The notes: generated by a model from the letters alone, not told the origin. A stretch of DNA of 64,000 nucleotides from a virus (IMGVR_UViG_3300037471_001511:1-64000); one strand, 5' to 3'; positions 5,679-52,580 are shown, counted from the first letter of the stretch. Made by a program: numbers and translations.

Positions 5679-7749
5679 GCTGGACTACTCGGTCACCTTC
5701 GACAAAGGACCGAACGGCCCCCGCACGCTGCGGGCGTCGCTGAACTTCACCACCGGGTTCACCGTGATCAGCGGCCCGAACGAGGCCGGCAAGAGCTTCG
5801 TCTTCGAGATGATGCGCTTCGCCCTGTTCGGGACGCAGGCGCTGCGGGGCGCCGCTGAGGACTACAAGAGCCTGCGCATGTCGGCCGAGGTCGACATCCG
5901 CGGCGAGCGCTACCGGATCGACCGCAACATCGACAAGGCCACGCTGTACCGGGGCGGCCAGGTCGTCTGCAACGGCGTGCGCGCGGTCAACGACAAGATC
6001 GTCCGCATCCTGGGCTTCGGCCTGCAGGTGTTCGACGTGGCCTGCTCGGTGAACCAGGGCGAGGTCGAGCGCCTCGGCGCCATGGCGCCGGCGGAGCGCA
6101 AGAAGATGGTCGACGGCGTGGTCGGGATCGACACGCTGGACGTGGTGGCCAAGTGGTTCGTCGACGAGGCCAAGGTGTTCGACCGGGAGGCGGAGGCGAT
6201 CCGGTCCCGGCTCGTGGTCCCGGTCCGTCCGGCCGTGCCTGACGGCTATCGGTCCAGCGCCGAGATCCCGCTCGAGACCGCCCGCGCCCAGGCTCGCGAG
6301 CTGGCCGAGCTGACCGGCTGGTTGGCGCACGCCCGGCCCAAGCCGGCCGAGCCGACCTGCAAGGTCGATCTGCCGGCGGTGAACCTGACGGTGTTCGCCA
6401 ACAAGCGCCGCAAGCTGCGCGAAGAGATCGCCGACCTCGAAGCCGTGCCGCACGCGGTGGCGTTCTACACCGACGCGCAGCTCGACGAGGCGGAGACCGA
6501 CTGGCAGGCGTACGTCGAGTACGAGAACGCCCAAGCCTGGCTGCGCAACAACCCGGCGCCGCGGGCGACCGGCGAGCTGCAGCTCGACGTGTTCGAGGAC
6601 GACTGGACGGCGATCCACAACGTCGAGACGCGCGCCTCGCTCTGCCAGCGGATCAAGGCGCTGCAGGAGAAGGGCTTCAAGCTGTGCCCGCACTGCGGCG
6701 GCGAGATCCCGCTCGAGGAAGACGCCATCGAGCAGCTGGTCCAGCAGCACGACGCCCTGCCCGTGCCGGACAGCGGCCGGGCGCCGCCCACGCCGCCGCT
6801 CACCCCGGCCGAGATCGCGGTCGAGCGCCAGCGGCTGAAGACCTGGGACGCCGCGAAGGCCGAGCAGATGCGGGCCGTCGCGGAGATTCCCCGGCCGGGG
6901 ATTCCGAAGGAGGACATCCCGGTCCACCGCACGGTGATCAAGCAGGCCCAAGCTTGGAAGGACGCGCAGGGTCTGCTTGCGGCGACGCGGCATCAGTTCG
7001 CCGAGATGCCCGACTACGAGACCATGCTGATCGAGCGGCAGGCCTACGAGGAAGCCCTGCCCCGCTACCGGCAGGAGCTGGCCGACTGGGAGGCGTGGAA
7101 CACCGAGCGGCAGAAGAAGGAGCTGCGGCGCACCCAGCTGGCCGGCGCCGAGGCGACGCTCGCCGCGCTCGAGGCCGAGCACCGGACCGCCGTGGCGTTC
7201 GAGCAGCAGCTCGCCGTCTACGAGGCCGCCCGGCAGGCCTATGAGACCGGGGAGCGGGACGCCAACGACCTGACGGCCAAGGCCGAGCGCTACCGGAAGG
7301 TCCGCGACGTGATGGCGGTGCTGCGCTCGCTGATCAAGCAGCACCTGCTGCCCAGCCTGAACACGGTGGCCAGCGCGCTGCTGGCCGTCATGACCGGCGG
7401 CCAGCGCCGGTCGATCTACGTGGACGAGGAGTTCGACGTGCTGGTCGACGGCCAGCGCCTGAACACCCTGTCCGGCTCCGGCAAGGCCTGCGCCAACCTC
7501 GCGCTGCGCATCGCGCTCGGCCAGGTGCTGACCAACCGGGTGGTCTCGGTGCTGCTCGCCGACGAGATCGACGGCAGCATGGACGACTTCCGGGCCGAGA
7601 AAACGTCACAGATCCTATGGAACCTTACAAATAGCATCTCCCAGGTGCTGCTGGTCTCCCATAAGCAAATCGAAGGCGAACATCACGTTCGTATCGGAGG
7701 CTTAAGTGGGGACGGAGAACCAGCAGATCTCCTTGGATCGGCTGCGTGA
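5668..7749 (+). CDS. sbcC: SbcC/Rad50-like SMC ATPase
   Basis: Walker A GPNEAGKS near N-terminus, CPHCGG zinc hook in a coiled-coil middle, C-terminal LLADEIDGSMDD (Walker B/D-loop). Confidence 0.85.
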   Translation: MFHKLDYSVTFDKGPNGPRTLRASLNFTTGFTVISGPNEAGKSFVFEMMRFALFGTQALRGAAEDYKSLRMSAEVDIRGERYRIDRNIDKATLYRGGQVVCNGVRAVNDKIVRILGFGLQVFDVACSVNQGEVERLGAMAPAERKKMVDGVVGIDTLDVVAKWFVDEAKVFDREAEAIRSRLVVPVRPAVPDGYRSSAEIPLETARAQARELAELTGWLAHARPKPAEPTCKVDLPAVNLTVFANKRRKLREEIADLEAVPHAVAFYTDAQLDEAETDWQAYVEYENAQAWLRNNPAPRATGELQLDVFEDDWTAIHNVETRASLCQRIKALQEKGFKLCPHCGGEIPLEEDAIEQLVQQHDALPVPDSGRAPPTPPLTPAEIAVERQRLKTWDAAKAEQMRAVAEIPRPGIPKEDIPVHRTVIKQAQAWKDAQGLLAATRHQFAEMPDYETMLIERQAYEEALPRYRQELADWEAWNTERQKKELRRTQLAGAEATLAALEAEHRTAVAFEQQLAVYEAARQAYETGERDANDLTAKAERYRKVRDVMAVLRSLIKQHLLPSLNTVASALLAVMTGGQRRSIYVDEEFDVLVDGQRLNTLSGSGKACANLALRIALGQVLTNRVVSVLLADEIDGSMDDFRAEKTSQILWNLTNSISQVLLVSHKQIEGEHHVRIGGLSGDGEPADLLGSAA

Positions 7750-8104
7750 GATCTACGAAAAACACGGCGGCAATCTCAATCTGATCGCTGCTGAACTCGG
7801 GATTTCACAAGGGGACATTCAAGAGAAGTTCACGACGCCGCCGACGCCGCCGGCGCGGGGACGCACCCCGCCGGCGGACCTGGGGTCTGAGAGCCTGCGG
7901 CAATTCATCGTCGCGTACCGCCACGCCGACTGTCCGGTGTGGAGGAAGGAAGACCAGAAGAAAATCGAAGAGGCCCGCGCCCTGTACTGCGCCGGCACGC
8001 ACGAGGTCTTCCAGGGCCGCGACCAGAACTGGTTCATCCTCTACTGCCAGCCCCGCAAGAAACGTTGCGGCGCTCGCAAGTGGTACACGGCTTTCGGGGA
8101 ATAG
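7706..8104 (+). CDS. HTH plus Cys-cluster protein (GTG start), in a lower-GC island
   Basis: N-terminal LNLIAAELGISQGDIQEK HTH-like; C-terminal C..C..C cluster; RBS GGAGG upstream; local GC about 50%. Confidence 0.45.
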   Translation: MGTENQQISLDRLREIYEKHGGNLNLIAAELGISQGDIQEKFTTPPTPPARGRTPPADLGSESLRQFIVAYRHADCPVWRKEDQKKIEEARALYCAGTHEVFQGRDQNWFILYCQPRKKRCGARKWYTAFGE

Positions 8105-8110
8105 GGGGGT

Positions 8111-8344
8111 ATGATGCGTACAGATCCGCACGGTCCGCTGAACGCGAACCAGCGCGCGCTCATGACGAAATTCACCCGCGAGACGCTCGAGGGGAAGAAA
8201 GAGCCGCAGCGCGACTACTCAAATCGCAAGCCCTACCGCAACAAGAACCAGAAGAAGGTGGCCCGCATGACGGCCGCCCGCGGTCAGGACGGCGTCTGGC
8301 GCTCCAACGCGCCCACGATGCAGCACCCCGAGGTGCGCTCATGA
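8111..8344 (+). CDS. hypothetical basic protein (77 aa)
   Basis: Lys/Arg-rich; lower-GC region. Confidence 0.35.
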   Translation: MMRTDPHGPLNANQRALMTKFTRETLEGKKEPQRDYSNRKPYRNKNQKKVARMTAARGQDGVWRSNAPTMQHPEVRS

Positions 8345-25172: not shown

Positions 25173-25907
25173 CTACTCCTGACACGAACTCGGGGCGGAT
25201 CCGCAAAGGTCCGCCCTCTCTTTTAAGGCCCGGAAGGCCTTCACCCACCGTCGGCACAGGTCGCTGCGGACCACGTCCTCTTCGGTGAATTTGGTCACTG
25301 CGTGAGGGATGTCCTCCGCCCACGCCATCTGCAGCAACGTCGCAAGCACCCGTTCATCGGGAACGCGGTCGGACTGGTCGGGATCGCCTTCGATCACCAG
25401 ACGCGTGCCCGGTCCGTGCCTGGTCAGGACAGCCTCGGCCTGTTTCAACGACAGGTTTTGGGCTTCCGACACATGCACCAGAGCGTTGCTAAATGTCCTC
25501 CCTCGAATGTGAGCGATGGTGCAAAACTCGATGCGCTGTTGGTCTAACCAATTTCGAGTCCTGTCAACACCAGCGATCAAACGCACTTCCTGCAGCACCG
25601 GTTTCATCCATGGCTCAGTTTTTTGGTTTAGCGAGCCAGGCAGGTATCCCATCTCCTCGTCGTCCACCGCTATTGTTGGCCGGACGATGATGTACTTCTC
25701 GATCCCGCGCAGCGGATCTTCATCGTATTCGAGTAGACCTGCAACCGCTCTGTGCGCCGTTACATAGGTCTTGCCGGTCCCGGCGGGGCCGATCGCGAAG
25801 ACGAGGTCCGCAGAATTCAACTGCTCATGATAGCGTTGCTGGTTGGGCCGGCGGGCGCGAAAGGGCGGCAGCGGCTGGGGATCTGCCTTCTTCTTGCGCT
25901 GGGTCAA
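25173..25907 (-). CDS. phoH: PhoH-like ATPase
   Basis: Walker A VFAIGPAGTGKTY and PhoH-family core. Confidence 0.8.
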   Translation of the reverse strand: MTQRKKKADPQPLPPFRARRPNQQRYHEQLNSADLVFAIGPAGTGKTYVTAHRAVAGLLEYDEDPLRGIEKYIIVRPTIAVDDEEMGYLPGSLNQKTEPWMKPVLQEVRLIAGVDRTRNWLDQQRIEFCTIAHIRGRTFSNALVHVSEAQNLSLKQAEAVLTRHGPGTRLVIEGDPDQSDRVPDERVLATLLQMAWAEDIPHAVTKFTEEDVVRSDLCRRWVKAFRALKERADLCGSAPSSCQE

Positions 25908-34658: not shown

Positions 34659-35109
34659 GCTGCGGGAGCACCGTTCGGAAATCGACAGCGGTCTCGACGC
34701 GGACCCTCGGCGCGCTCTTGTGCCGATAGACCCCGACGAGGTTGTTCCTGAAGATCCCGCCGTAAGCGGTCTCGCAGGACAGTTGTCCGACTAGGTGATG
34801 CAGGATCCTGTTATTGTCGAGCCAGATCATGCAGTGATTTCCAATGGAACTTTCCACTGCGGACACCAGCACGTCGCCGACTTTCCACTCCCGTGGATTT
34901 AATTCCACTGGAACGAAATCTTCCTCGGCCGCCAGATCACGGAACAGGTCGAGCGAGCAGAACCCCTGCCCCCAGTTGGCCGGGTAGGGGTAGTCGCTCA
35001 GCTCGAGGCCGAAGTTGTCCCGGTAGAAGTCCCGCACCAGCGTGTAGCAGTAGCGGGCGTTGGGATCCCACGGGATGCCGATCAGGTGCCGGTAGCGCAG
35101 CTCGTTCAT
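34588..35109 (-). CDS. NlpC/P60-family protein (lambda gpK C-terminal-like)
   Basis: RYCYTLV...GNHCMIW...HH Cys/His pattern; ATG 35109. Confidence 0.55.
   Translation of the reverse strand: MNELRYRHLIGIPWDPNARYCYTLVRDFYRDNFGLELSDYPYPANWGQGFCSLDLFRDLAAEEDFVPVELNPREWKVGDVLVSAVESSIGNHCMIWLDNNRILHHLVGQLSCETAYGGIFRNNLVGVYRHKSAPRVRVETAVDFRTVLPQHVERRLEELRTRRGADGAAGPRT
34837..34915. promoter_or_regulatory. intragenic cluster of four motif-family copies inside the NlpC/P60 gene
   Basis: ATTTCCAATGGAAC, TTTCCACTGCGGAC, TTTCCACTCCCGTGGA, ATTCCACTGGAACG within 80 bp; local GC clearly below genome average. Confidence 0.45.
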
Positions 35110-35906
35110 CACAGCACCACGAACGGATAACCTTCGCTCGGCGAGAAGATCCGGCGCGGCGTCTGCCATGCCGGCATGTCGAGCGGCGAACCGAGTTCGA
35201 GCGTCAGCACCTGGTCGGTGACCTCGAGCGGCCGGCGCACCAGCCACAGGCGCTTCTGGAAGATGTTGACGTTGGCGAGCACGTGCCGGCCGAGCACGCG
35301 GAAGCGCGTCACCTCCGCCAGATCGAAGAAGCCCTCGGCAGCGTAGGCGCCGAAGACGTTCTCCGGGTTGACCACGATCAGTTTCGGCCGGGCCGCCTGG
35401 TCGTCGGTCGAGCGCCGCTCGCCCTGCATCTGACAGGCCAGCGCCTCATAGGTCTCGCCCTGCCAGACAATCTCGGCGCCGTCGCTCACGGCCTGGGTGA
35501 AGCGGTAGATGATGCCCACCTTCTTCAGGCGGATCTCCCACAGGTCGACGTAGCCGTCGGCCTCGAGCTTGAGCGACTCGTCGATGTGGTCCCCGGGCGG
35601 CGCCCCCGGGCCGACCTGCGGGACGCTGGGCGGCAGCGGCGGAGGCGGCGGAGGCGGCGGAGGCGGCGGCGAGGGCAGCGGACCGGGATCGTCGGGGCTG
35701 TCGTAGAGCACCGCGAACGCGGTCAGCTTGGAGACCTTGTACTCTTCCGACGGGACGAGTACCGCGAACTTGCTGATCTTGGTGGCGACGACAGCGTCCG
35801 AAGGCGGCCCCAGCACCGCGAAGCCCGTTACCTTGGTGACGACGGGATTGCCGGTCGGGGGCGTCAGGACCGCGAACGCTACGAGCTTGGAGACGTCCAC
35901 GCTCAC
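35109..35906 (-). CDS. minor tail protein (lambda gpL-like) with N-terminal 4x repeat module and polyproline linker
   Basis: repeats VSKLVAFAVLTPP, VTKVTGFAVLGPP, ATKISKFAVLVP, VSKLTAFAVLYDSP; PPPPPPPPPPPLPP; gpL-like C-terminal half. Confidence 0.6.
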   Translation of the reverse strand: MSVDVSKLVAFAVLTPPTGNPVVTKVTGFAVLGPPSDAVVATKISKFAVLVPSEEYKVSKLTAFAVLYDSPDDPGPLPSPPPPPPPPPPPLPPSVPQVGPGAPPGDHIDESLKLEADGYVDLWEIRLKKVGIIYRFTQAVSDGAEIVWQGETYEALACQMQGERRSTDDQAARPKLIVVNPENVFGAYAAEGFFDLAEVTRFRVLGRHVLANVNIFQKRLWLVRRPLEVTDQVLTLELGSPLDMPAWQTPRRIFSPSEGYPFVVL

Positions 35907-50194: not shown

Positions 50195-50431
50195 CTAGAA
50201 ATTTCCGAGCAGAGACTGCCCGGCGAACGCCGCCCGGGGCTTCAGCACCGCGAACGCCGCGACCTTGCTGACCATGAACTTGTCAGATGGATTCAGCACC
50301 GCGAACGCGGTGAACTTGGTCACCCCCAGGCCGCTCATGCCCAAGACCGCAAAGGAGGTCACTTTGGTGACCACTTCGCGGTCGCTGGGCGGCCCGAGGA
50401 CCGCAAAGCTGGAGAGCTTTGAAACGTCCAT
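50195..50431 (-). CDS. small protein made of four copies of the same VSK..FAVL repeat found at the gpL-like N-terminus
   Basis: VSKLSSFAVLGPP, VTKVTSFAVLG, VTKFTAFAVLNP, VSKVAAFAVLKP. Confidence 0.5.
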   Translation of the reverse strand: MDVSKLSSFAVLGPPSDREVVTKVTSFAVLGMSGLGVTKFTAFAVLNPSDKFMVSKVAAFAVLKPRAAFAGQSLLGNF

Positions 50432-50434
50432 GGC

Positions 50435-51410
50435 TTAGGCGATGGACTTCACGCCGATCTCGGCGGCGTTCAGGTTGGTGGCGCCCCAGATCGACCCGGT
50501 CGACGGGTCGGTGGCGAAGATCCCGACAACCGGTCCGAACCCCGACGACACGTTCGACAGGTTGCTCGAGAAGTAGTTGGTGCCGCCGATGCGCAGGGCC
50601 GCCTGCAGGTTCTGCGGACCGGTGGCGCCCTTCTTGGCCCGGGCGGTGACCACCAGCGCCTTGATGTCCAACGACCCGATGGTGGCGTCGGTGCAGCCGT
50701 AGGTCTCGACGTCGCCAGCCGAGGTCGAGCTGATGAAGTCGGTGTCGTCGAACGTCGTGGCCTCGTCGACCGCGTTGAAGTCGCCGGTCCACGCCGTGTT
50801 GGTGGCGCTGTTGGCGTTCGGATACATAGTCGCCAGCTTCATGCCGACCGTGCTCTCGTCGGCGCAGATGATCTGTGACCAGTTCAGCGACCCGCCGGTT
50901 TGCGAATGGCGGAACCGGGCCGAAGCGATGTTGGTCACCGCCGACGTGGTGATGGCGCCGGTGGTGGCGACTTGGCTCCCACTTTGGAACAGGGTGGCGG
51001 TCGTCGTCGCGCCGACGACGATGTGGACGTCCCAGGTCTGCAGGTTGGTGTAGTCGAGGGACGTGGGCGACGTGCCCGCCTGCCACGCCGACCCGTCCCA
51101 CACCTCGAGACGCCAGACGTTGCTGCCCGAGGAACTGTTGCGCAGGCGCACGACGTTGGTGCCGCTGCCGTTGAACCACTGGATGCAGTCCGCCACCGCC
51201 GAGCCGAAGTTCGAAAGCTTGGCCTCGAAGTGGCACCAGTAGTCGGTCGTGTTCGCGTGCGTCGGCGTGTCGAAGTAGCTGGTTTGGTTGCTCACGCTTA
51301 TCGCCGACCGGGCGTAGGTCGAGTTGAACGTCCCGGCGGTGGTGACTTCAGTCACGGAGCCGGTCGGGGTGAAGGCGGAAAGTTCGCCGCCAGCGTGAAG
51401 GATCGTCATG
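50435..51410 (-). CDS. hypothetical structural protein (Ser/Thr/Gly-rich, 325 aa)
   Basis: ATG 51410. Confidence 0.45.
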
Positions 51411-51783
51411 CGGCCTCCAGTGCGCCGAAGAGGGTCCAAGTGTCGGTGCCGGTCTTCAGCAGCTGCAGCACGCCGTACTGGCCGGTCGCGGAAGCGTTGA
51501 AGTTGGTCACCTTGTTGATGGTCACGCCGCCGGCGCCGACCACGCTGACCTTGCCGGCGCCGCTCTGGTGCAGCGCGATCGGCGTCCACAGCGGGAAGGC
51601 GACCGAGGCGTTGGTCGGCACGGTCACGGTGACCGCCGAGGCGCTGGTGTAGTCCACCACCCCGCCCAGGTCGGCCAGCACCAGCGTGTCGGTGGTCCCC
51701 GACACGGTGCGGGAGGGCATCGCGTTCTTGGCGAACGCGTCCCGGCTCTGGCTGTCGGTCAGGGCGGCGCCGAGGTACTGCAT
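51406..51783 (-). CDS. hypothetical structural protein (125 aa)
   Basis: TGATG stop/start overlap with upstream gene. Confidence 0.4.
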   Translation of the reverse strand: MQYLGAALTDSQSRDAFAKNAMPSRTVSGTTDTLVLADLGGVVDYTSASAVTVTVPTNASVAFPLWTPIALHQSGAGKVSVVGAGGVTINKVTNFNASATGQYGVLQLLKTGTDTWTLFGALEAA

Positions 51784-52580
51784 CAGCCGACCACCACGAC
51801 GCGGTAGGCGTTGGTCGCCGGCGCCGAAGCGAAGGCGACGGTCACCTGGTTGACCGAGGTGCGGGTGACATCGGCGAGCACCTCGTCGTAGCTGCCGCTG
51901 TTCTTGTAGACCGCGACGGTCACGTCCCGGGTGTTGAGGTTGTGGTTCAGCACGAAGCTCGTCGCCGAGCCGTCGCCGAGGTTGCCAGCCGCCTTCTTGA
52001 TCCGGCCCGACCACGTCGCGAGCTTCAGCGGCGTGACGATCCGCGCGTCGTCGGTGCCGGCGTCCACTTCCGATTGGGTGGCGATCTCGGCGATGCCGGC
52101 GGTGCTCTCGCTGGCGCTCGGCGCGGTCGGAATGAAACTGGTGAAAGTGATGGCGGTGGTGCCGACGGTCGGATCGGCGACGGTGCAGCGCCACGTCGTG
52201 CCGCCGTTGTTGGCGCCACCCGGCTTCACCGGGACGATCGCCGAGTTGAACTCGGCGGAGACGCTCATGTCGGCGGCGCGGGTGGCCGCGCTCGAGGCCC
52301 CGTTCCAGACGTAGATCCCGTTCTCCGAGGGGTCGGTCTGGTTGGGCGCAAGGAAGCGGTCGTTCAGGCCCATGGTCACGCCGTCCAGGCTCGCGCCCGG
52401 CGAGGCGAGGTTCACGTTGACGGCCGGGGCGGCCACCACGTCGTCCTTCCACGCCATGCCCTCGACGGCGGCGTTGAGCTGCTCGTAGACGACCGGCTGG
52501 CCGCTGGCGGTCGCGACCGGCAGGCCGTCGATGCCGGCGCCGCCAGCGAACAGGAGGGAGGTCAGGACGGGTTTGGACAT
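51783..52580 (-). CDS. hypothetical structural protein (265 aa, Ig-like/beta-rich)
   Basis: Ala/Gly/Thr/Val-rich. Confidence 0.45.
   Translation of the reverse strand: MSKPVLTSLLFAGGAGIDGLPVATASGQPVVYEQLNAAVEGMAWKDDVVAAPAVNVNLASPGASLDGVTMGLNDRFLAPNQTDPSENGIYVWNGASSAATRAADMSVSAEFNSAIVPVKPGGANNGGTTWRCTVADPTVGTTAITFTSFIPTAPSASESTAGIAEIATQSEVDAGTDDARIVTPLKLATWSGRIKKAAGNLGDGSATSFVLNHNLNTRDVTVAVYKNSGSYDEVLADVTRTSVNQVTVAFASAPATNAYRVVVVG

Follow-up and report, generated by a model that had tools for sequence, protein, structure and literature searches.

Host range is shaped by accessory adhesins and by how they are attached to the virion, but the attachment interfaces are mostly idiosyncratic and difficult to predict from sequence. 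Such adsorption hardware, and its attachment to virions, is already known in kind. Siphophage "evolved" distal tail (Dit) and other baseplate proteins carry carbohydrate-binding modules (CBMs), with a folded CBM inserted in Dit. Choline-binding repeats and the donor strands of chaperone-usher systems are tandem units of about 20 amino acids (aa) or single strands that feature conserved aromatic residues and act by stacking or sheet completion. The head spike of the Rhodobacter capsulatus gene transfer agent (RcGTA) mediates capsule binding (PMC7296036; PMC5026251); its small base protein forms a pentamer that holds a single 325-aa fibre via a short repetitive N-terminal peptide (PMC7296036), and the spike genes are patchy, fast-evolving and phage-borne (PMC5026251). 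In Ur-lambda, the N-terminal collar domain of gpStf docks the side fibre on gpV/gpM (PMC12617516), and the last tail ring of lambda is made in part of three gpL HDI domains (PMC10721106). Here we describe a short tandem repeat in a metagenomic (JGI) virus of 66.5% GC content (IMGVR_UViG_3300037471_001511:1-64000; the whole 64-kb stretch is hereafter the window), where it makes up a stand-alone 78-aa protein, orf78, as well as the N-terminus of a gpL-like tail-tip hub protein.

We tentatively propose that this repeat array docks a 324-aa beta-rich, adhesin-like protein, encoded directly beside orf78, to the virion; we set the probability of this docking, as read from sequence comparisons, a little below even. 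Three things are new here: the repeats form a family whose arrays are fused to anchors in a modular way, they keep company with a strongly conserved partner gene, and orf78 belongs to an accessory, fibre-like cassette of four genes. The partner gene, which the first-pass annotation of this DNA did not include, is the most informative feature. The repeat-bearing regions of the window and the partner gene are as follows.

50195..50431, minus strand: orf78, the 78-aa stand-alone repeat protein, with sequence MDVSKLSSFAVLGPPSDREVVTKVTSFAVLGMSGLGVTKFTAFAVLNPSDKFMVSKVAAFAVLKPRAAFAGQSLLGNF
50396-50425, 50342-50371, 50294-50323 and 50243-50272, minus strand: the four VSKxxxFAVL units of orf78
After the last of these units, minus strand: the 15-aa C-terminal tail of orf78, KPRAAFAGQSLLGNF
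50435..51409, minus strand: the 324-aa beta-rich protein (phrog_6368, function unknown), whose gene accompanies the repeat family as its conserved partner
35109..35906, minus strand: the gpL-like tail-tip hub protein, 265 aa, with N-terminus MSVDVSKLVAFAVLTPPTGNPVVTKVTGFAVLGPPSDAVVATKISKFAVLVPSEEYKVSKLTAFAVLYDSPDDPGPLPSPPPPPPPPPPPLPP and the HDI domain at about 35112-35585
35706..35894, minus strand: the four-repeat gpL module, with units at 35865-35894, 35811-35840, 35757-35786 and 35706-35735
35595..35696, minus strand: the Pro-rich tether between repeats and hub domain, with 11 Pro plus Leu-Pro-Pro at 35628-35669

Translated in all six frames, the window contains the tetrapeptide FAVL exactly eight times, four times in orf78 and four times in the gpL-like open reading frame (ORF), and each of the two ORFs carries four copies of V/A-S/T-K-x-x-x-F-A-V-L. 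A repeat unit consists of a 10-aa core and a 6-8-aa linker rich in Pro, Gly and Asp. A looser tandem-unit finder returned three spurious 2-copy runs, of which one lies in the window and the other two in 50 kb of sequence from an unrelated phage, and it gave no spurious run of at least three copies in either. The first-pass annotation had correctly described the 78-aa ORF at 50195-50431 as four repeat copies. It had also reported the repeat itself, as a 13-14-aa module; we find periods of 18, 16 and 17 aa in orf78 and 18, 18 and 17 aa in the gpL module. The four copies that it placed at the gpL N-terminus are likewise there, in a module that covers about 67 residues and not 60, and its 14-residue polyproline linker is a Pro-rich stretch of residues ~71-104 in which 11 consecutive Pro are followed by Leu-Pro-Pro.

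The orf78 and gpL modules share 60% protein identity. The aligned repeats have 36 residues in common, 19 of them specified by different codons, and the two modules are therefore under purifying selection and represent neither a recent duplication nor an assembly artefact. Repeat by repeat, the identities are 10, 10, 8 and 8 of 14 along the diagonal and about 8 off the diagonal.

Relatives of these modules are widespread. From a set of 1.84 billion protein representatives, a HMMER profile built from the orf78 and gpL modules drew 64 hits at E<=1e-3, all of which, except for three low-complexity false positives, carry the units (~60 genuine relatives), and a second, word-indexed profile search added 42 further small repeat proteins. 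With orf78 alone, a word-indexed homology search found nothing and tblastn against phages gave only weak matches, later shown to be true relatives. Family matches for orf78 were absent from Pfam (E<=1), PHROGs, NCBIfam and PADLOC; no Pfam model covered the repeat regions of 10 relatives; a 28-module repeat profile retrieved nothing from PDB sequences at E<=5; and we found no paper describing the VSKxxxYAVL motif. Thus, the VSKxxxF/YAVL repeat is, on these sequence comparisons, an undescribed family relative to Pfam, NCBIfam, PHROGs, PADLOC and PDB sequences, which agrees with the first-pass reader's failure to recognise it, and the suggested search for FAVL-type repeats elsewhere was fruitful in that its ~60 relatives include several virion anchor proteins. 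A defence-system reading was rejected on the lack of PADLOC hits, and the Adenovirus shaft model (PF00608) does not match the repeats, its sole hit (Adeno_shaft, E=0.17) lying at gpL residues 225-243, outside them.

Across 344 units, the family consensus is [V/I]-[S/T]-K-[L/V/E]-[N/T]-[G/A]-Y-A-V-[L/V/I]-x-P-P, with Lys conserved in 96%, Tyr in 92% plus Phe in 8%, and Ala in 79%; the Phe found in 8/8 window units is unusual in the family. Units are spaced 15-21 aa apart (mode 18) and occur in runs of 2-13. They are carried by several different proteins. Repeats lie N-terminal to Dit/DUF2460 (TIGR02217, Rcc01695 family) in at least eight proteins (P0008, P0011, P0014, P0019, P0031, P0034, P0049 and P0063) and in gp56 of Brevundimonas phage Polewnik, N-terminal to a gp84_N-type hub (weak match) in L018, and N-terminal to a Pam3_gp18 baseplate plug in L019. 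In P0006, nine repeats are fused to a head-spike base of the RcGTA Rcc01079 family (NF048002, E=1.4e-19). Other relatives carry their repeats C-terminal to lectin-like domains (ALK/LTK-type glycine-rich, Laminin_G_3, F5/8 type C) and some C-terminal to an unassigned ~200-aa domain. Because it is found on varied anchors, of heads as well as tails, the array appears to behave as a portable connector. The N-terminal domains of P0012-type fusions were considered as homologs of the 324-aa protein and rejected (hhalign E=0.85).

orf78 belongs to a stand-alone class of 48-135 aa, with 2-7 repeats and a short hydrophobic C-terminal tail. Conserved tails stand directly past the last repeat in P0007, P0013, P0012, P0027, P0030, P0032, P0050, P0051, P0054, P0056-P0058, P0082 and P0068-P0090, in the forms R-P-x-V-F-V-C-T, I-V-N-C-C-x, P-S-V-Q-I-I-Q and Y-S-Y-L-P-V-V-N, and may be a second, C-terminal anchoring peptide. 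The tail of orf78, KPRAAFAGQSLLGNF, is unlike these recurrent tails. In the Dit fusions, a second short repeat, e.g., R-V-S-x-x-x-A-E-x-h-T-G-G or A-R-x-x-H-A-A-L-x-V-L, occurs between the VSK..YAVL array and DUF2460 (L001 3059-5509, L002 2170-3549, P0008, P0011, P0014, P0031, P0034 and P0049).

A homolog of the 324-aa protein flanks the repeat-bearing gene in 16 of the 20 distinct loci examined, with 25-38% identity, E-values from 1e-10 to 2e-36 and mostly full-length alignments. The linked loci are the window, L004/L014, L007/L008, L009, L010, L015/L016, L017, L018, L019/L020, L022, L025, L026, L036, L040, and phages Polewnik, Delta and DSS3P8. Where the repeats form a stand-alone small protein, the homolog is directly upstream in 9/10 cases examined. 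Upstream homologs include those of L004, a phage with a GTA-like tail (30% identity, E=2e-36), of L007/L008 in a plasmid-like context (E=5e-29), and of L009 (E=5e-34), L010 (E=1e-23), L025 (E=2e-23) and L026 (E=6e-26), and the spike-base fusion P0006 has a 324-aa-family gene just upstream (E=1e-21). A back-translated SKLNAYAV pattern gave three chance hits and one true locus, L040, again with the partner gene upstream (E=1e-87 against the family profile). The association also holds in reverse: starting from the 324-aa family and searching IMG/VR and cultured phages, repeats open the very next gene in L017, L018, L019/L020 and L022, lie within the next gene in Polewnik and Delta and at the end of the preceding gene in DSS3P8, and are one ORF away in L015/L016. 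Depositors have labelled the homolog of Erythrobacter phage XM05 as "tail assembly protein" and that of RcKickapoo as "glycoside hydrolase", neither of which is verified.

Both partners also occur outside a recognisable phage context. In the plasmid-like L007/L008 element, each of the two proteins carries a Sec signal peptide, and the pair is thus predicted to travel and be exported together; the mature 372-aa L007 protein begins TILFAGGE, matching the phage N-terminus MTILHAGGE. This pair (6863-8258), on an element that is plasmid-like or resembles an integrative and conjugative element, adjoins genes for RPA, ParA, ArdC, a methylase, a PIN toxin and a Hachiman-like HamA/helicase; the 16 kb covered contain no virion gene. 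Likewise, the 6.6-kb contig L025 encodes a 339-aa partner, a 126-aa protein with seven repeats and a REP_ORF2-G2P rolling-circle initiator, which suggests a small non-tailed element.

AlphaFold2, run on orf78 with a 41-sequence alignment, assigns each repeat a single strand, at residues 2-11, 21-30, 36-46 and 53-63, and the loops that connect the strands have 5-9 residues. One strand face (positions 1, 3, 5, 7 and 9) presents V, K, N/T, Y and V, and the other S, L, G/A, A and L, small residues that fit tight packing. A lone four-stranded sheet of this kind has no core, so the array would be expected to fold against something else. The beta-solenoid that the first-pass annotation offered as an example fold is not what the model gives, namely four long single strands, and Foldseek against the PDB and BFVD returned only generic beta-sheet matches, none at E<0.01; an 18-aa period with Asn/Thr at position 5 is nonetheless compatible with a solenoid in an oligomer. 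For the full gpL-like protein, a single-sequence AlphaFold prediction reached a predicted local distance difference test score (pLDDT) of 36.7.

The ORF at 35109-35906 matches Pfam Phage_tail_L (PF05100) over residues 134-253 (32.6 bits, above the cut-off of 25; E=6e-8) and phrog_18 (E=2e-30), and scores 40.9 bits against TIGR01600, under its equivalog cut-off of 70.75. Its gene is flanked by a 128-aa gpM-like and an NlpC/P60 gpK-like gene, and that of a 2013-aa tape measure lies upstream; beyond the NlpC/P60 gene are genes for products of 114 aa, 186 aa, 390 aa and, J-sized, 1484 aa, with the identities of the 114-, 186- and 1484-aa products taken from size and order only. The gpL-like identity assigned earlier therefore stands, by the Phage_tail_L score, phrog_18 and the lambda-like operon order. 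The C-terminal Cys4 iron-sulfur domain of lambda gpL (PMC10721106) is absent from the window protein, which ends GYPFVVL, and from its closest homologs, P0002 and P0003; a more distant homolog, P0004, retains a Cys-rich C-terminus. By its domain content, the window gpL is classed as an HDI-only member of the minor tail protein L family. P0002 and P0003 (59% and 53% identical, 161-163 aa) start where the hub domain starts, which indicates that the repeat module and the Pro-rich tether are an addition in the window lineage. Some 15 kb separate this gpL-borne copy of the repeats from the partner gene. Downstream of the tail genes, the minus strand also encodes a PhoH-like ATPase (25173-25907) and a phage lysozyme (26488-27270).

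orf78 itself closes a fibre-like cassette of four genes that lies between the portal and scaffold/protease-like genes. The order on the minus strand is terminase large subunit, portal, 265-aa fibre-like protein, 125-aa protein, 324-aa protein, orf78, scaffold/protease-like protein and major head protein. In addition to orf78 and its partner, the cassette comprises the following.

51783..52580, minus strand: the 265-aa fibre-like protein, first gene of the cassette, matching phrog_2647 and tail-fibre/collar PHROGs
51406..51783, minus strand: the 125-aa ORF, matching C-terminal domains of tail-fibre, minor-tail and virion-structural PHROGs

The match of the 265-aa protein to phrog_2647, "head decoration", extends over most of its length, and those to several tail-fibre/collar PHROGs are more local. 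The junctions are TGATG between the 265-aa and 125-aa genes, ATGA between the 125-aa and 324-aa genes, and TAA-gcc-ATG between the 324-aa gene and orf78; through these overlapping or close junctions, the four genes are predicted to be translationally coupled. Around the cassette, neither a sigma-70-type promoter nor an intrinsic terminator was found. We place the true start of the 324-aa gene at the ATG at 51409 (MTILHAGGE...), which overlaps the preceding stop (ATGA), because all homologs and the Sec-cleaved mature L007 form begin MTIL(H/F)AGGE. In the mechanical ORF list, the corresponding 384-aa ORF (50435-51589) begins 60 codons too early, and the 125-aa gene is concealed within a longer alternative-start ORF. 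The start of orf78 is 3 nucleotides past the TAA of the 324-aa gene and in the same frame. A 324-aa/orf78 readthrough fusion was rejected as a general rule: the two are in frame in the window and in only 4/8 other loci, no better than chance, and the in-frame arrangement of stop and ATG, separated by one codon (50429-50437), is probably coincidental.

The first-pass annotation had placed orf78 between scaffold and head-protein genes. Its upstream neighbour is not a head protein; it is the 324-aa protein, inside a fibre-like cassette. The label "head-region protein" for orf78 thus reflects map position only, since the other cassette members match tail-fibre and virion-fibre PHROGs. With that label removed, the earlier suggestion of a common docking or adhesin module is partly borne out at the level of the family, in that the repeats are fused to varied anchors (RcGTA-type spike base and tail tip) and linked to a partner gene. 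Caulobacter phage Seuss, the nearest cultured relative of the window phage (48% identity in the scaffold/protease-like protein), carries no cassette of this kind between the gene at its portal position and the scaffold-like gene. Together with the closest gpL homologs, which lack the repeat module, this indicates that both the module and the cassette are accessory add-ons.

We propose the following arrangement. VSKxxxY/FAVL units, about 18 aa apart and each forming one predicted strand, would constitute a small portable connector array that mobile elements use to fasten an accessory, adhesin-like protein at an anchor point of the particle, and the cargo would most likely be the 324-aa beta-rich protein encoded directly beside the repeats. 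On the tail, a Pro-rich tether of ~34 residues would link the array to the N-terminus of the hub; by analogy with lambda, there would be three copies per tip, and the three gpL-borne arrays could place docking sites around it. The free orf78, translationally coupled with the 324-aa protein, would serve as a soluble adaptor or co-subunit that either tethers the 324-aa protein elsewhere via its tail or pairs with the gpL-borne array. We infer from the conserved linkage that the repeats would bind the 324-aa protein, and an adhesin role for that protein and a virion location for orf78 would follow the same reading; the fibre-like remainder of the cassette counts in its support. A bolder form, which we hold to be unlikely though worth stating, is that the array and phrog_6368-type proteins make a universal plug and socket in which each repeat strand pairs with, or completes, a partner beta-sandwich. 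If so, repeats on any exposed protein (Dit, hub, baseplate plug or head-spike base) would mount multiple adhesin copies, plasmid-like elements would use the Sec-exported version on the cell surface, and phage and GTA adsorption devices would follow a new, transferable rule by which they could be built and re-targeted.

Several observations weigh against docking as proposed here. The orf78 model has low confidence (mean pLDDT 63.6, predicted template modelling score 0.39), and an exact-sequence lookup in the public collection found no called gene with the orf78 product and did find the exact gpL product, on a 74-kb contig; small proteins of the repeat family may often go uncalled. The N4-like roseophages and Erythrobacter phage XM05 encode a 324-aa homolog with no repeats nearby (56 kb were scanned in DSS3phi2), and the 324-aa family is therefore not obligately repeat-dependent. 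Conversely, P0098 (L027), a small protein and weak relative, comes after a portal-MuF gene, and no 324-aa homolog lies nearby. Finally, Pfam and NCBIfam library searches detected no lectin or other domain in the 324-aa protein, so that "adhesin-like" draws on composition, context and the lectin-like fusions of relatives; the family profile also found nothing among PDB sequences.

There are other explanations, some of which place the binding activity in the repeats. The array could be the adhesin itself, with ladders of Lys and Tyr/Phe that bind cell-surface polysaccharide, and the 324-aa protein an independent, co-travelling adhesin. The near-invariant Lys and the aromatic residue do share one face of the predicted strand, no element lies beyond the repeats at the N-terminus of P0019, P0031, P0034, P0049 and the window gpL, and a copy number of 2 to 13 would be expected for avidity-based binding. 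We nevertheless regard this explanation as unlikely, if deserving of serious attention, because it does not account for a 324-aa neighbour in 16/20 loci across unrelated backbones, nor for stand-alone proteins of 48-105 aa that have just 2-4 repeats: a free, anchorless 78-aa adhesin would compete with the virion. The same two features, conserved neighbour and stand-alone proteins, are equally unexplained if the array is a passive spacer or stalk, i.e., a length-adjustable beta-rich linker of which orf78 is a remnant or small structural filler. Its location between distal lectin-like domains and anchors, the variable number of units and the polyproline tether that follows it in gpL would all suit a stalk, but a near-invariant K...Y-A-V-L core across very distant lineages is rare for spacers and orf78 is under purifying selection, which makes this account distinctly improbable. 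It is also rather improbable, to a similar degree, that arrays of different chains co-assemble, with the orf78 sheet packed on the gpL N-terminal sheet through the small-residue face as a two-layer sandwich to which the 324-aa protein might or might not bind. Here the exactly four units of both window modules, 60% identical in register, the small and hydrophobic strand face suited to tight sheet-sheet packing, and an isolated modelled sheet without its own hydrophobic core are set against a weak register signal, in which the diagonal scarcely exceeds the off-diagonal, and against most other loci, which show one repeat-bearing gene in the stretch available.

The remaining two explanations reassign the roles of orf78 or its partner. 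Small genes downstream of fibre genes are often chaperones, and orf78, as a small gene downstream of fibre-like genes, could by this general argument be a fibre-assembly-type chaperone for the 324-aa protein; alternatively, the 324-aa protein could be an enzyme or chaperone, and no structural partner, that acts on the repeats, e.g., by modifying the invariant Lys of each unit or by folding the array, which the unverified depositor labels of the XM05 and RcKickapoo homologs would suit. We consider either version very unlikely, as no catalytic or chaperone family matches the 324-aa protein, the Sec-exported version disfavours a cytoplasmic, cofactor-dependent enzyme, and a chaperone role for orf78 fails where the repeats belong to large baseplate proteins. 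Least probable of all, and close to negligible, is that orf78 is not a gene and represents a decaying duplicate of the gpL 5' end. This would fit the missing gene call in the source collection and the lack of a visible strong Shine-Dalgarno sequence for orf78; the ORF is, however, intact, with its ATG 3 nucleotides past the upstream stop, 19/36 conserved residues use different codons, and dozens of stand-alone homologs hold the same position relative to the partner gene.

The practical value of the docking proposal is that a short, recognisable repeat marks a likely attachment point on at least five different anchor proteins, of heads and tails, and that one neighbouring gene family marks the likely cargo. 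If the binding is true, phrog_6368 and the small "hypothetical" repeat proteins, many of them too short for gene calling, would gain an annotation; accessory receptor-binding proteins of alphaproteobacterial phages, GTAs and related elements could be found by a sequence rule; and the array would offer a compact tag of ~70 aa for the display of proteins on the phage particle. For the plasmid-like elements, the Sec-exported version would further suggest a use outside virions.

Relative to the known systems, the locus combines familiar features in a different way. The C-terminal 160 residues of the window gpL match Phage_tail_L and its gene lies in an M-L-K-I-J order, as for the HDI hubs lambda gpL and T5 pb3, but it differs from lambda gpL in its N-terminal repeats and polyproline tether and in lacking the Cys-rich iron-sulfur domain. 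As in evolved Dit proteins, binding modules are grafted on baseplate scaffolds, here by relatives that combine DUF2460, lectin-like domains and repeats at the N-terminus; the recurrent element, by contrast, is a short strand repeat with a separately encoded partner. The Ur-lambda side fibre is likewise an accessory fibre on the tail tip, held by a dedicated docking element with flexible linkers (PMC12617516). There, however, the docking element is on the fibre, the platform is the tube/Dit surface without modification, a repeat array is absent, and the two systems share no sequence similarity. Choline-binding and donor-strand arrays resemble the window repeats by analogy, with no sequence match to such Pfam families.

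The RcGTA spike (Rcc01079 GhsA and Rcc01080 GhsB) is similar in being a two-gene accessory adsorption module of a small and a ~325-aa protein, and relative P0006 fuses the repeats to an Rcc01079-family base beside a 324-aa-family gene. In contrast, orf78 lacks the spike-base domain of GhsA (NF048002; no NCBIfam hit), which is present only in relative P0006, the gene order is reversed in the window pair, and the RcGTA docking peptide, IALGLGLGL, is unrelated to VSKxxxYAVL. The 324-aa family was rejected as the RcGTA head fibre, its profile aligning to RcapMu58 with an hhalign probability of 0.16%; RcapMu58 was taken as the Rcc01080 homolog from its 326 aa and its position after the spike-base-like RcapMu57. 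The GhsA-like N-terminus of RcapMu57 (L037 17917-18183), ...GPALSSFAVTPNDAADLP, resembles the repeat core and linker KLSSFAVLGPPSD of orf78, without the Lys; the resemblance could be due to chance, or the repeat could have arisen from the first strand of a spike base. Overall, we consider the RcGTA spike to be the closest precedent for the repeat and its 324-aa partner, with a resemblance that would be one of function and not of family membership.

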